Made by a program: the position numbers and the translations under genes. From Octopus vulgaris (Eukaryota): a stretch of 64,000 nt of DNA. The notes below the pieces were generated by a model. It did not search any database. It was given only the letters and a program-made list of their open reading frames with translations, and was not told the DNA's origin. The DNA is taken from assembly GCA_951406725.2 (NCBI GenBank), contig OX597833.1, positions 21,390,001 to 21,454,000 of the forward strand, written 5' to 3'. Positions 29,001-41,620 of this stretch are shown one piece after another (position 1 is the first letter of the stretch; the number at the start of each line of letters is the position of its first letter).

Positions 29001-29554
29001 GCACTGCCTGCACATTTATGTAAGTCATAATGCCGTCCTCATAATGAAAGAAAGACATTAAAACAGCGTAAGTGTAAATAAATACCTCCACGTAAATAAA
29101 CCATGACTATGTAACAAGACGCCGAGGATTTGTTTCTTGTAGCATAAACCAGTATAAGAGGAAAGATAATTCACGCCTGGATTTAAAATATCTTATATGA
29201 AAATGGAAGAAGAATCAAGAATAGATAATAACGAGCGACAAAAAATACGAAAGTATCAAGAAATATTTAAGAAAATCGCTGACACTCCGCTCTCGTACTC
29301 CCTCCCACCTCGTCGCTTCCTGGAAAAGAAGGAAACTCTTTTCTGGAGATTGGGAAACAAGCAGAAGAGAAATATAAATGTTTTGTTGTCGGATTTGTGA
29401 GCGTTTGGTGGAATAATTTAAAGAGATAAATCTGGGTCTCTTTTTTTTTTGTTTTTGTTTTTGTTTTTTGCTGCTGTTTTCTTTATTGACGCGTTTTGCT
29501 TTTTGCTCTCAAGAATCTTATTTTGGTTTGGTAAGAACGAAAGTAGTTCTTTGT

Positions 29555-30110
29555 GGTCGTGTTGGTGGTGATGGCGGCGATTGTGACGGTGGCGGCGATG
29601 GTGGTGGTGGTGGTGGTGGTGGTGGTGGTGGTGGTGGTGGTGGTGGTGGTGGTGGTGGTGGTGGTGGTGGTGGTGGTGGTGGTGGTGGTGGTGGTGGTGG
29701 TGGTGGTGGTGGTGGTGGTGGTGGCTTGGTGTCGGTGGTGGTGGTAGCTTGGTGTCGGTGGTGGTGGTGGCTTGGTGGTGGTGGTGGTGGTGGTAGTGGT
29801 TTGGTGTCGGTGGTGGTGCCTTGGTGGTGGTGGTGGTGGTGGTGGTGGTGGTGGTGGTGGCTTGGTGGTGGTGGTGGTGGTGGTGGTGGTGGTGGTGGTG
29901 GTGGTGGCTTGGTGTCGGTGGTGGTGGTGGCTTGGTGTCGGTGGTGGTGGTGGCTTGGTGTCGGTGGTGGTGGTGGTGGTGGTGGTAGTGTTGGTGGTGC
30001 TGGTAGTGGTGGTGGTGGTGGTGGTTTGGTGGTGGTGGTGGTGGTGGTGGTGTTGGTGGTGGTGGTGGTGGTGGTGGTGGTGGTGGTGGTTTGGTGGTGG
30101 TGGTAGTGTT
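29555..30110. repeat. (GGT)n tract with a recurring GGCTTGGTGTC interruption
   Basis: Direct reading. Confidence 0.95.
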
Positions 30111-30630
30111 GGTTGTGTTAACAGTCATAGGGATCGTGATCTTAGAGGAACTGTTGGCGGGGAGTCGAAGAGATTGAGAGAGGGTTTAGCAGTTTTTCTT
30201 TATGAGGATATATGAATAGTTCAAAGTAAATCACATAGAGATTAATATTTAAGAAAGAGAGAGAGAGAGAGAGAACCAAGGGGGAAGAGAAAAGGAGAAA
30301 AGCGAAGAGAGAGAATAAGAACTAAAGGGAGAAAGCAGGAATGAGAGAGAATACTATTTATATCATCGCAGCAATATTGTATGACTAAATCGCATCAATA
30401 ACGATACATTTTATCCAGGCGTTCATATTTCTTTTACTTTAAGAGCGACACAAGTTCAAAGCTTCAGAAGATGGTGACTACACGGTTTCAATCTTCGGAG
30501 GACATTTTATTTCGCTCGAATAACGTTTAGATTTCCGTAGCTGCAACTACTACTACGACCGATATATGATGCCATACTTTATATATATACATGTCTGTGT
30601 GTGTATGAGTGTGTGCGATATGTGTGTGTT

Positions 30631-30720: not shown

Positions 30721-30816
<96 letters not shown>

Positions 30817-30919
30817 AAAAAAGGAGATGTCGAACACGAGTGGTGATATATAAAAAAGGAAATGAAGAAAATGCTGACAAATAATTGAAGTAATTTAAGT
30901 AATTTAATTAGGTGAAAGT

Positions 30920-30967
30920 TCTTTTTACCGGTTGCGCATTTGTTATGCTTATCAAAATATAAAAGAG
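30920..30967 (-). ncRNA. Hammerhead-like motif (U3:A8 core, GCA in place of GAA)
   Basis: CTCTTTTATATT-TTGATAA-GCAT(AACAA)ATGC-GCA-ACCGGT-A-AAAAGA. Confidence 0.55.
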
Positions 30968-30984
30968 AGATTAGAGTCTGTCTC

Positions 30985-31257
30985 TTATATGTGAAAAAAA
31001 GAGGCTCCAGAGTTGTTTTGGATTTGCTTGGTTTCGCGCCTAAAATTTTGATTGGTCATTATGAAGGGGTCACGTGAATGTTTGAATGGAAGTTGGTGTT
31101 GGGGTAAGAAAAAAGGCTCCAGAGAAGTTAAAATTTGGCTAGTGTCCCGCCTAAAATTTCTTATTGGCCATAATAAAGAGGTCACGTGAATGTTTAGAAT
31201 TTTCGAAAATAGTGTTGTTGAAAATTCTTATTGTTCAGGCTGGTCAGTAGACGTCAT
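30985..31257 (-). promoter_or_regulatory. Candidate pLTR promoter: CRE, two 112-bp units with E-box/CCAAT/E2F-like sites, TATA-like box
   Basis: GTCACGTGA at 31069 and 31181, ATTGG at 31051 and 31163, TTTCGCGCC at 31032 and TCCCGCC at 31145, GACGTCA at 31250. Confidence 0.5.
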
Positions 31258-31676
31258 GTGGATATTTTAAATAGCTTTTTAGCGCGTAGTTAGGGAGTGT
31301 ATTTTCCGCTTGACTGGATAAGTAAGTTCGTTTAGAACAGGGAGAGCTGTATGTATGTATGTGTGTGTGCGCGCGCGCGCGTGTGTGTGTTTATATGTAT
31401 GTTGGGGCGCGCGCGCGTGTATATATGTGTGTGTGTGTGGGTACAATTTTCAATATTTATAGTTCTGCTGGCCTTGTGCCTGTATCGGGAAGCAACGTAT
31501 TTGTGTGAAGTCAATATTTACAGCCATTTCCAAAAAATAGTGTTGGATGTTTTGCACCCGTATTCAATTATGTGTATGTGTGGAACCATATATTTGTGTG
31601 TGTCATGGTGTTAATATCTGGGTAAAGGTGTGTGTAGGGTGTGTGCAGGTGTAAGTGTGTTTGTTGTGGGTTCGTG

Positions 31677-33824
31677 TTAGGGGCATGTGTTTAGAAGTGG
31701 TCTGTATTTATTAATAAGGTGGGATTCCATGGTTATTCGCTGGGTATGAGTGGCATTGTCTTTAAATTTGTAGAGGGGAAAGATTCTAAAATTGGGATGG
31801 AGTTGTGCGGCACAGGTATCAATATGTGCACTAAATGCTATTTTTCTATATTCCTGTATTTTTATTTGGGATCTGTGGACAGTCATGCGTTGGCGGAGGC
31901 TATTTTTTGTTTGGCCTATGTAGTGTTCATTACAGCCCGAGCAAGTTAAGACATATACTAGGTTTTCTGATGCGCATGTGAAGTTGTGTTTTACTGTGAA
32001 ACGTTGTCTTTGTTTAAAAAGGAATTCCGGACCTTCTATTAGGTTGATGCATATACCACAGTTGGGTCTATTGCATTTGTTTACTGTGGGTTTAGTTGTT
32101 GTGGTTGGCAGTACTTTGGCATTTGTTAGGATGGTTTTCAATGATTTGGGTTGCCTTTTGCTCTTTATGATTTCGTGTGTTAGGAGGATTTGGTTCATTC
32201 TATGGTCCTTTTGTAGTACAGGAATGTTCTGGAGGATGGTGTCAAAAGCTTCATTGTTGAGGGGGTTGTGTGTAGAGATGTATGGTAGAGTATGGGGTTT
32301 CGATGTAACAGGTTTAGGGCGTCTAAGTTCCTGCGTGCTGAGTTTTAGGGCGCGTTGGATCCCATTGTCAATTAGTGACGTGGGGTAATCCCTGCTTGTT
32401 AATGTGCCCTTGAGTTCTTGTAGACGTAAGAGACGGGTGTTTTTATTGGAGACTATAGTGCAAATTCTCTTGGCTAAGTTGTAGGGAATGTTAATTTTAA
32501 CGTGTCTAGGGTGGCATGAATTGAAAGGGAGGTATTGCTTGGAGTCTGTGGGCTTGTAGTATATGTCTGTTTCTATTTTTTTGTTGTGAATTTTAATGAG
32601 GATGTCGAGGAAGGGAATTTGTTGAGGGCTGTATTCCATTGTGAAAATAATGTTTGTGTTGAGCCCATTTATAAGAGTGTGAAATTCGTTAAGCTTCTCG
32701 ACGGTTTCGGGCCAAAGGATGAAGCAGTCATCAAGATATCTCTTCCAGTTCTTCTCTATGTATGTGTGGAGAGTGGTGCCAAATTGGTTAAGAACGTTAT
32801 TATAGAGGGTGATTTCCAGGTATCCCATGACTAAGTTGGCGTAAGTGGGAGCTGTTTTCGTTCCCATTGCCGTCCCTGATTTCTGTCTGTAGAATTTGTT
32901 GTTGAAGGTGAAGAAATTATTCTCTAAGATGAATTTGAGTCCTTCTAAAATAAATTCCTTTTTGATGCGGTGTGGGAGTTCGTTGGAGTAATTATCCAGC
33001 CAGAATTGGATAGCTTCTATTCCTAGGTTGTGGGGGATGTTGGAGTAAAGATTGACTACATCGAATGTTACTAGCAGGGTTTGTTCAGCAAAAAGTGTAT
33101 TGGGGAGGTGGTTGAGCATATCTAGATCGTCCCTTATGTAGCTTTTAATGTGTTTGAGGAACGGCTTGAGAAGGGTATCAATGAAGTTGCTAAGGCGGTG
33201 GGTTTCGCAAGCGGGACCTGCTATTATAGGTCTCAATTTGAGGTCATTTGGTGAGGGGACATTGATTACAGAGTTTGTGGCTTCCTTGCATGCCTTACTT
33301 ATTAATTCGCTTTTATGAATTTTGGGAATACCGTAGAAGAGGCTGGTTTTACTAGTGAAATTTGTGATGAAGTTGAATTCTTTGTTAGTGAGTTCTTCTT
33401 TGTGGGGGTTGATCAGGGTTTTTAAGTTTCTCATAATTTTCTGTTGATTGTAGTGTTCAGCCTTTTCGTAATATGTTCCATTTTCCAAGGTGGAGAGTGC
33501 TAAGTTGATATAGTATTCTGTCTCCATTAAGACTACTGCACTTCCTTTATCGGCCTCTTTAATGGTGATAGATCTTTCATTTTTTAATTTGTTTAATTCT
33601 TCCCACTCTTTCTTGTTGAGGTTTGGTTTGGGTTTTGGTTTGTGTAAGTGTTGGTAGGGGAAGTTTGTAATGTGCTCACAGAATTCGTCTAGGATTTTAT
33701 TTCTACCTTTTCGTGGGGTGTAGTTGCTTTTATTTCTAGCTAGTGACTCATCCTCATTGTGCTGGTCGAATAGTTCCTCACTAAGTCGCAATTTTCTACA
33801 AAATTCTGTAATGTCTTCCTTCAT
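31677..33824 (-). CDS. PLE reverse transcriptase with C-terminal GIY-YIG endonuclease (frame open upstream to 34031)
   Basis: ADKG, FYGIPKIHK, LRPII, FDVVNLYSNI, GTAMG, YLDD, FLD, CxxxxCxxC linker and VYVLTCSGC..YIGQT; the in-frame extension upstream of the ATG contains VINLT and LLSKGLKFTPTP. Confidence 0.97.
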   Translation of the reverse strand: MKEDITEFCRKLRLSEELFDQHNEDESLARNKSNYTPRKGRNKILDEFCEHITNFPYQHLHKPKPKPNLNKKEWEELNKLKNERSITIKEADKGSAVVLMETEYYINLALSTLENGTYYEKAEHYNQQKIMRNLKTLINPHKEELTNKEFNFITNFTSKTSLFYGIPKIHKSELISKACKEATNSVINVPSPNDLKLRPIIAGPACETHRLSNFIDTLLKPFLKHIKSYIRDDLDMLNHLPNTLFAEQTLLVTFDVVNLYSNIPHNLGIEAIQFWLDNYSNELPHRIKKEFILEGLKFILENNFFTFNNKFYRQKSGTAMGTKTAPTYANLVMGYLEITLYNNVLNQFGTTLHTYIEKNWKRYLDDCFILWPETVEKLNEFHTLINGLNTNIIFTMEYSPQQIPFLDILIKIHNKKIETDIYYKPTDSKQYLPFNSCHPRHVKINIPYNLAKRICTIVSNKNTRLLRLQELKGTLTSRDYPTSLIDNGIQRALKLSTQELRRPKPVTSKPHTLPYISTHNPLNNEAFDTILQNIPVLQKDHRMNQILLTHEIIKSKRQPKSLKTILTNAKVLPTTTTKPTVNKCNRPNCGICINLIEGPEFLFKQRQRFTVKHNFTCASENLVYVLTCSGCNEHYIGQTKNSLRQRMTVHRSQIKIQEYRKIAFSAHIDTCAAQLHPNFRIFPLYKFKDNATHTQRITMESHLINKYRPLLNTCP

Positions 33825-33961
33825 TTCGTAGTAGTTTGGACGTGGGGGGGTTGGTGTGAATTTCAGACCTTTGGAGAGTAAGTTGAGAAGGTTGGGGTTG
33901 GGTTCTGTATTGGTTAAATTGATGACTTTAATTAGTTTATGTTTCTCTTCCCTGTCCTGTG

Positions 33962-34462
33962 TTATTTTGTTTGCCTGTATCTGTGTGCTGTGTCTAAAAA
34001 ATGGTTGGGGTAGAGGGGTTGTCTGTTGGTGTTAGGAGGTCCTGTGTGTTTGTTATATTCCTTGTTGTGAAATATGGTTCGGGTTCGTGGTTGTGGATAG
34101 AATGGGGTGTTCCTGTATTGCGGGTGTTGGTGTGTGTTTCTTTGTGTTGTGATGGATTGTGGTGATATGAGTGACCTGCGTGGGTGCTTGTATCGAGTGG
34201 TATGGGTTTGTTGTGTATTGTGAGAGTTGAGAAAGTGAAAATTACCTTGTTGTCCCCTCGTGGTGTGGATGTTGTTGTGTCTATCCTGGTAGTGGGATCC
34301 TCTTTTATTTGTTAATAAGGTATTCGAGTAGTTGTTGAGTTGTTGTGTATAGCGTCTCCTTGAAGAGGGAAATTCGTTAATGTAATTCTGGTGGTGAGAG
34401 TTTCCAGGGTTCTTGTTCCTCCTTATGGACGTGGGGTAAGAAGGTACATCTTCAATATGCTG
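33962..34462 (-). CDS. 5'-truncated upstream ORF1 of the PLE (basic, low-complexity, N/H/T/Q/R/P-rich)
   Basis: 166 sense codons without a stop by manual translation (QHIEDVPSYPTSIRRNKNPG...PLYPNHFLDTAHRYRQTK*); no start codon because of the truncation; overlaps the RT frame. Confidence 0.7.
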   Translation of the reverse strand, partial: QHIEDVPSYPTSIRRNKNPGNSHHQNYINEFPSSRRRYTQQLNNYSNTLLTNKRGSHYQDRHNNIHTTRGQQGNFHFLNSHNTQQTHTTRYKHPRRSLISPQSITTQRNTHQHPQYRNTPFYPQPRTRTIFHNKEYNKHTGPPNTNRQPLYPNHFLDTAHRYRQTK

Positions 34463-34547
<85 letters not shown>

Positions 34548-34549
<2 letters not shown>

Positions 34550-34945
34550 CGCAGGAATGGCTATGTGGTAAGTAGCTCGCTTACCAACCATATGGTTCCG
34601 GGTCAGTCCCAATGCGTCGCACCTTGGGCAAGTGTCTTCTACTATAGCCTCGGGCCAACCAAAGCCCTATGAGTGGATTTGGTAGACGGAAACTGAAAGA
34701 AGCCCGTCGTATATATATATGTGTGTGTGTGTGTGTGTATGTACATATATGTTTGTGTGTCTGTGTTTGTCCTCCAAACATAGCTTGACAACCGATGCTG
34801 TTGTGTTTACGTCCCCGTCACTTAGCGGTTCGGCAAGAGAGACCGATAGAATAAGTACTAGACTTACAAAGGATAAGTCCTGGGGTCGATTTTCTCGACT
34901 AAAGGCGGTGTTCCAGCATGGCCGCAGTCAAATGCCTGAAACAAA
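34548..34945 (+). mobile_element. SINE family A, full length
   Basis: Matches 37929-38328. Confidence 0.92.
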
Positions 34946-35080
34946 TCATTAGATTTTAGTCGAACGAATCGACCCCATTCCTTTTTAATCCTAGTACTAA
35001 TTTTATCGGTGTCTTTTGTCAATATTAAGGGGAGATGAAAACACCGGCTGTTTATATATAGGCGGAGGCATGGCAGTGTG

Positions 35081-35230
35081 ATAAGAAGCTTGCTTCCCAA
35101 ATACATGGTTCCGGGTTCAGTCAGTGCGGGCACCTTGGGCAAGTGTCTTCTACTATATCCTCAGGCCGGCCAATACCTTGTCAGTGGATTTGGTAGACGG
35201 AAACTGAAAGAAGCCCGTCGTATATATGTG

Positions 35231-35282
<52 letters not shown>

Positions 35283-35510
35283 CGTGCGTGTGTGTGTGTG
35301 TGTGTGAGTTTTGTGCCTGTGTTTGTCCCTCACCATCGCTTGACGACCGATGTTGATATGTTTATTTGTTGATATGCAACTTAGCAGTTCAGACCGATAT
35401 GATAAGTATTAGGCTTACAAAGAGTAAGTTCTGGGGTCGATTTCTTCGACTAAAACTCTTTAATGCGGTGCTCCCTCATGGCCGCAGTCAAATGACTGAA
35501 ACGCGTAAAG
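35081..35510 (+). mobile_element. SINE family A
   Basis: Matches 37929-38328. Confidence 0.88.
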
Positions 35511-41174: not shown

Positions 41175-41381
41175 AACTCTCTTTACTCTGTTACTCTTTT
41201 ATTTGCTTCAGTCATTTGATTGTGGCCATGCTGGAGCACCGCCTTTAGTCGAGAAAATCGACCCCAGGACTTATTCTTTATAAGCCTAGTACTTACTCTA
41301 TCGGTCTCTTTTGCCGAACCACTAAGTTACGGGGAAGCAAACACACCAGCATCGGATGTTGGGGGGACAAACAAAGACACA

Positions 41382-41441
<60 letters not shown>

Positions 41442-41620
41442 TATACATATATATATATACATATATACGACGAGCTTCTTTCAGTTTCCGTCTACCAAAT
41501 CCACTCACAAGGCATTGGTCGGCCCGAGGCTATAGTAGAAGACACTTGCCCAAAGTGCCACGCAGTGGTTTTGAACCCGGAACCGTGTGGTTGGTAAGCA
41601 AACTACTTACCACACAGCCA
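41175..41620 (-). mobile_element. SINE family A
   Basis: Reverse-complement match; a plus-strand 3' half lies at 40915-41122. Confidence 0.9.

Follow-up and report, generated by a model that had tools for sequence, protein, structure and literature searches.

A conserved U UUU UUA heptamer likely joins an upstream gene to the reverse transcriptase of an endonuclease-bearing Penelope-like element in Octopus vulgaris

The 64,000-nt stretch of Octopus vulgaris DNA analysed here (contig OX597833.1, positions 21,390,001 to 21,454,000; hereafter the window, whose own numbering is used throughout) includes a copy, truncated at its 5' end, of a young Penelope-like element (PLE) with a reverse transcriptase (RT) and, at the C terminus, a GIY-YIG endonuclease. 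The element appears to be a two-gene retrotransposon, with a conserved U UUU UUA heptamer lying where an ATG-started ORF1 and the RT-endonuclease frame overlap, and we consider -1 frameshifting at this heptamer to be the likely mechanism for making RT (probability roughly 0.86). A minority of ribosomes would slip back one base at the heptamer and continue into a fusion protein of ~1,190 residues; the majority would terminate ten codons further on and release the ORF1 protein alone. An earlier note on this DNA had proposed such a gag-pol-like pair of ORFs, a reading that the layout, the phase of the heptamer and the unspliced contigs described below support; the slip itself, and a gag-pol-like ratio of ORF1 to RT, we infer.

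The features of the window copy are collected in Table 1, and the coordinates first reported for it hold: on the minus strand a stop-free frame runs from 34462 to a TAA at 33964-33962 (166 codons), and the RT frame is open from 34031 to 31677 (784 codons). The TTTTTTA at 34001-33995 is phased CAT TTT TTA in ORF1 and TTT TTT AGA in the RT frame, and of its three occurrences in the element only this one is coding, the other two falling in the T-rich 3' end. Assignment to the Neptune clade fits by motifs, namely the linker and the CxxC (two cysteines) that precedes YIG in the translation of the window copy; the rows of our RT tree are all unnamed. A pseudo-LTR, in tandem or inverted form, and a (TA)n target are both present. 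A search for a hammerhead ribozyme gave no Rfam family match, and no CTGANGA..GAAA pattern near the 3' end, from which variants could escape. The 3' end also contains an internal duplication of ~95 nt at 79% identity (31200-31106 and 31087-30994), and a long CAC/ACC-type trinucleotide repeat region lies directly 3' of the element (29400-30200). On the 5' side of the insertion a short interspersed repeat is present as two diverged copies in tandem (34550-35500), and a third copy lies inverted ~6 kb away (41200-41577) and is 84-91% complementary.

Table 1. Features of the Penelope-like element in the window (positions are those of the window)
Feature	Position	Strand	Basis
ORF1 3' part, last 166 of 431 codons, basic disordered tail; 5' part missing from the window copy	33962..34462	minus	frame, pI, pLDDT
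Slippery heptamer T TTT TTA; ORF1 Phe420-Leu421, RT frame Phe-Phe-Arg	33995..34001	minus	conserved site
Ten-codon spacer from heptamer to ORF1 stop, no predicted structure	33965..33994	minus	MFE 0.0 kcal/mol for 45-65 nt
ORF1 stop TAA then CAC; candidate pause site of a leading ribosome	33959..33964	minus	
RT-endonuclease frame, -1 relative to ORF1, 774 codons counted from the heptamer; YLDD at 32738	31677..34001	minus	RVT_1 E 1e-6
N-terminal RT motifs VINLT (33926) and LLSKGLKF (33881), upstream of the first in-frame ATG (33824)	33858..33926	minus	conserved
C-X4-C-X2-C linker between RT and endonuclease, Neptune/Nematis type	32049..32075	minus	definition in PMC8557442
GIY-YIG endonuclease domain	31698..31961	minus	PF01541 E 3e-6
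3' untranslated end; precedes ORF1 as pseudo-LTR in full-length copies; then (TA)n	30810..31676	minus	
5' truncation point abutting (TA)n tract, insertion target	34464..34545	.	
Donor-like AAG/GTAATT, phase 1; judged incidental	34240..34248	minus	not found in families B, C, E

A DNA search of the 2.8 Gb genome, in which 40 of 520 candidates were scored, at 96-100% identity, yielded 30 loci. Fourteen of these extend 5' to the start of ORF1, which lies behind a tandem copy of the element's 3' end, and in 12 of the 14 an ATG-started, unbroken ORF1 of 431 codons is present. The two-frame layout is common to the copies, T6-AG being read in 29 of 30 and T7 at the same length in the remaining one (L030), so that the copy-specific indel that had been raised as a concern does not account for it. 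Four families share a CTCGT ~55 nt before the ORF1 ATG and a CACGAG-like word ~15 nt before it (element-strand positions 650-710 of L006 and the matching 5' ends of families B, C and E); these words are candidate promoter or terminus motifs.

Conservation of the heptamer and its phase extends to six families in the genome and to 13 outside loci. Five further families, whose RTs are 54-73% identical, all carry TTTTTTAG in the same phase, and synonymous sites are saturated between the six. Within families the site agrees in 16 of 20 loci of B (of the other four, two are truncated below the site and two have T7), 8 of 9 of C, the single locus of D, 8 of 10 of E and all 6 of F. From 120 outside loci, 67 of them screened by script and 16 read by eye, an in-phase site was found in 13, as U UUU UUA in 11, U UUU UUG in one and two variant sites in another. 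This last locus (L116) has U UUU UUG 22 codons and U UUU CUA 10 codons before the stop, ~200 nt before its RT match. In a quick tree without bootstrap, which kept 42 of 43 rows with L153 and short hits dropped by length, the six families and 13 outside loci fall into one RT clade (SH-aLRT 100) that also takes in three siteless loci. The sister-group loci L128, L132 and L135 lack the site; two begin within 165 nt of the RT match, and L135 has none. The slip-site families are separate in the RT tree from 20 relatives with long open N-terminal frames, which were labelled from the outside-locus reading and screened for T6 heptamers only. L204, with an in-phase T6A but a position outside the clade and just 36 open codons upstream, was left out of the 13. 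As expected of programmed -1 frameshifting, the site is thus an X XXY YYZ heptamer that lies in phase within the ORF overlap and is conserved.

The proteins tell the same story in a wider sample. We examined 151 ORF1 homologs, 90 of which have a tail of at least 90 residues, and found F[LF] within the last 45 residues of 77 of these 90, compared with 2 of 90 in the preceding 45 residues and a shuffle mean of 13; the 77 were counted from protein sequence alone, their codons being deduced. Only once in 77 is the residue before FL one that lacks a U-ending codon (M, W, Q, K or E), against a background of 21%, and TTT and TTA are minority codons in the RT frames (9-15 of 27-35 Phe and 11-16 of 74-86 Leu). 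Because a U-ending codon before FL is possible in 76 of 77 and the codons of the run are minority ones, it is the bases that are kept and not the peptide.

ORF1 itself has the marks of a gene. Between four families, its core (residues 85-240) gives pN of 0.16-0.30 against pS of 0.62-0.80, closely resembling RT (pN 0.16-0.29, pS 0.64-0.78), and ORF1 is intact in full-length copies; by this comparison of sequences, ORF1 is a real gene under purifying selection like RT. A profile search with the core found 833 representatives at E <0.001, and the named relatives of the ORF1 and RT proteins come from bivalve molluscs. RT or ORF1 relatives also occur in records labelled as bacterial symbionts or MAGs (P0184, P0228, P0293 and L194-L234), where they are most likely host DNA in those assemblies. 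The description of the product as basic and disordered suits its tail, which has a pI of 11.2 and a pLDDT mostly below 50 beyond residue 237, but the protein is not simply disordered because the first 240 of its 431 residues form a conserved helical domain: the fold predicted for residues 1-245 is all-helical and confident (model on 102 homologs, mean pLDDT 89.6). Pfam has no family for ORF1, none being found in more than 1 of the 102 homolog members, and neither Pfam nor structure searches matched a capsid or zinc-knuckle domain. A profile search of solved structures with ORF1 returned generic coiled coils only, Foldseek of the model against PDB and viral structures returned nothing at E 0.001, and no match came from scanning metagenome contigs for the ORF1 pattern or viral contigs for the RT. 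The top ESM Atlas score for ORF1, 0.84, is a lead at most; the best hits of a VIA structure comparison, helical bundles at Z 8.9 and 6.4 A, were set aside as within the range of common arrangements. ORF1 is a family so far undescribed, lost or truncated by RT-based annotation, and its helical core and basic disordered tail suggest that it may be a structural or RNA-binding partner.

Several other routes to RT have to be weighed against a slip. If RT came from a spliced mRNA, TTTTTTAG would be a 3' splice acceptor, and the sequence has some of the necessary features: an AG follows the run in all six families here and in 10 of 13 outside loci, the base after the heptamer is G in 16 of 19 DNA sites (with a G-starting codon there in 54 of 77 proteins), CTAAC stands 38 nt upstream of the site in the window family (34035-34031), and PLEs can carry introns, as a passage of PMC8557442 states. 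However, there is no AG at L119, L159 or either L116 site, a non-G-starting codon follows FL in 23 of 77 proteins, and the would-be pyrimidine tract is always T6, on a strand rich in C. Four families have 40 donor-like sites between them, of which only two have GT in phase 2, both weak and unshared; the AAG/GTAATT at 34245 is, as first noted, a phase 1 donor that would stay in the ORF1 frame. Moreover, if this AG were the acceptor, no ATG would remain ahead of the first RT motif in families A, B, D and F. The contigs of all four probable RNA runs cross 33994 without a joint, with the proviso that these runs, from three studies, are RNA by guess only and that contigs could miss rare splice forms. 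Taken with the sequence features, this makes splicing a very unlikely source of RT. Separate translation of RT by reinitiation or leaky scanning near the ORF1 stop, with the heptamer incidental or secondary, draws on an RT-frame ATG 12-15 codons after the heptamer in families C and E and at L153 (the matching column is ATA in A and B and CTG in D), and on the 29 of 80 motif-bearing RT homologs whose called start lies 20-32 residues before the motif. In 3 of 19 sites an RT-frame ATG overlaps codon +11, and the called starts of many RT homologs place one there too. Against this, 16 of 19 sites, the two youngest families included, have no such ATG, none of 8 stops at +11 is the TGA required for an AUGA stop-start, and the conserved U-run and the U-ending codon before it would be left unexplained. 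Because an RT-frame ATG precedes the first motif in just 3 of 19 sites, reinitiation is not the general route, and as the sole explanation we find it quite unlikely; it may act alongside the slip in some families. The same count, and the position of ATG 33824 downstream of VINLT and LLSKGLKF, uphold the doubt already voiced about that ATG as the start of RT.

An extra U could also be added at the run during transcription, so that a ribosome reads one frame throughout. T7 does fuse the frames in 2 of 20 family B loci, and the mussel gene model P0239 joins the ORF1 tail to RT via R-F-F-R, but the contigs of the four probable RNA runs show no insertion at the run, the fused copies have not spread, the variants at L119 and L116 retain the tandem-slip pattern, and polymerase slippage would have no need for a fixed phase or stop spacing, all of which renders it highly improbable. 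(The mussel models P0239 and P0196 join the element in one frame to an ORF1 tail, or else to a Toll-like receptor domain.) That the frameshift is a sequencing error or peculiar to one copy of a single-ORF element is scarcely credible: homopolymer indels are indeed common in the assembly, as in family F copies, but the layout is the same in 29 of the 30 copies, across six families, at 13 outside loci drawn from other assemblies and in the contigs of four runs. Frameshifting by the ribosome is therefore the reading that we carry forward.

A stimulatory RNA structure 5-9 nt downstream is a further feature expected of programmed -1 frameshifting. In agreement with the earlier impression, pseudoknot-free folding predicts no stimulatory hairpin downstream of the site in any of this genome's six families (z -1.6 to +2.4). 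Among eight outside sites folded, one has a hairpin (L153, z -3.4, canonical, with a 5-nt spacer), and weaker ones are found in L120 (z -3.9) and L123. The ORF1 stop, on the other hand, has a favoured distance: of the 77 proteins, 25 have it exactly 10 codons after FL and none has it nearer, where a null built on this frame within RT gives 4% and 54%; it is farther away in the other 52. At the DNA sites the spacing is 10 in 8 of 19 (9 counting the second L116 site), 1 in two and 11-31 in the rest. The two with a stop 1 codon after the heptamer, L122 and L126, have long open frames on both sides and represent a different arrangement or mutated copies. The stop is followed by C, which slows termination, at 7 of 8 ten-codon sites and at 1 of 10 other DNA sites. 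The spacer peptide between heptamer and stop shows no conservation, and a ten-codon periodicity beyond the first peak was not significant (8 of 48). Small P values overstate the case for the spacing because the ten-codon state is clustered on the tree (11 changes against a shuffled mean of 21) and the counts are not independent; the state does occur on both sides of the tree midpoint, over long branches.

For yeast, 10 codons is reported as the smallest gap at which ribosomes collide, and human disomes are reported to accumulate at stops (10.1101/2023.02.01.526718); in the E. coli reporters of PMC6815119, trailing ribosomes made more -1 slips when a stop stood 8-10 codons behind a slippery heptamer. 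Since the stop spacing here equals the reported disome gap and no structure is predicted in the families here, a ribosome pausing at the ORF1 stop might hold the next one on the slippery run, one disome gap behind. We propose tentatively, at rather less than even odds, that the stimulator is another ribosome, and that selection keeps the ORF1 stop, in a weak context, one disome gap from the run. If true, the ratio of ORF1 to RT would be set by ribosome traffic instead of RNA structure. Alternatively, the ten-codon spacing could reflect a minimal length of protein tail or common ancestry, or ribosomes could slip often enough on U UUU UUA at the basal rate, with no stimulator. Pro-Pro or Gly-Gly occurs at the same distance in 16 of the 52 distant-stop proteins, compared with 2-5 of 52 in upstream windows, and families in which the stop has moved may have replaced it by such pause motifs or by a hairpin. 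At +9 to +12 after FL, the distant-stop homologs have, by subgroup, Gly-Gly-Gly, Pro-Pro-Asp/Asn or Asp-Thr-Arg-Trp.

Frameshifted ORF1s have a precedent among PLEs; it reportedly comes from the Athena group (Arkhipova et al. 2017), endonuclease-less elements that are said to have the same T6A heptamer. Athena elements lack the endonuclease and carry telomeric repeats at the 3' end, whereas the element here has a GIY-YIG domain and (TA)n flanks. Because a frameshifted ORF1 is known in some PLEs, the surprise lies in finding one in endonuclease-bearing elements, and in the missing RNA stimulator. The Fig. 1 legend of PMC8557442, like that of its preprint, allows for a PLE ORF1 set apart by a frameshift with a pseudoknot, naming no clades and so perhaps covering Neptune; the elements it describes, like ours, have ORF1 upstream of the PLE RT, a frameshift between the two and a coiled-coil-like ORF1. 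Elsewhere in that paper endonuclease-bearing PLEs are called single-ORF, and PMC6431247 sets single-ORF elements with an endonuclease against two-ORF elements without one. We found no report of a frameshifted ORF1 in endonuclease-bearing PLEs in the literature searched, with subscription papers, Repbase and Arkhipova 2017 outside its scope. The element resembles the Neptune clade in its RT, C-X2-5-C-X2-C linker, GIY-YIG with two cysteines before YIG, pseudo-LTRs and (TA)n targets, but Neptune elements have a single ORF where this one has two. Some Neptune-like elements carry esterases (PMC5408684), and ORF1 here is not an esterase.

U_UUU_UUA is the HIV site (PMC5009743), and HIV-1 gag-pol shares both heptamer and layout with the element, with Phe-Leu-Arg or Phe-Phe-Arg as the expected products. 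However, the six families have no predicted stem-loop downstream, nothing capsid-like matched ORF1, and the host of the site is a non-LTR-type retroelement instead of a virus. The engineered collision frameshift in E. coli (PMC6815119) likewise places the heptamer one ribosome-length before a slow stop, with no structure needed, and its reporters peak at a 9-codon spacer, which by the same count is 10 here; that case is an artificial bacterial reporter, whereas this one would be natural, selected and eukaryotic. In SARS-CoV-2 ORF1a a zero-frame stop lies 5 codons after the slip site, conserved in position and affecting frameshifting, and is proposed (PMC8168617) to let the pseudoknot refold, in contrast to the element here, which has no predicted structure and a stop at collision distance. 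No report of natural collision-stimulated frameshifting was found in the literature searched, subscription papers lying outside its scope.

A two-gene reading would turn a large group of endonuclease-bearing Penelope elements from single-ORF elements into carriers of a gag-pol-like pair, and would make ORF1 a candidate component in the assembly of the PLE ribonucleoprotein. Collision-caused -1 slips have their precedent in engineered bacterial reporters, and the ten-codon spacing opens the question of whether ribosome collisions serve as a programmed signal in animals.
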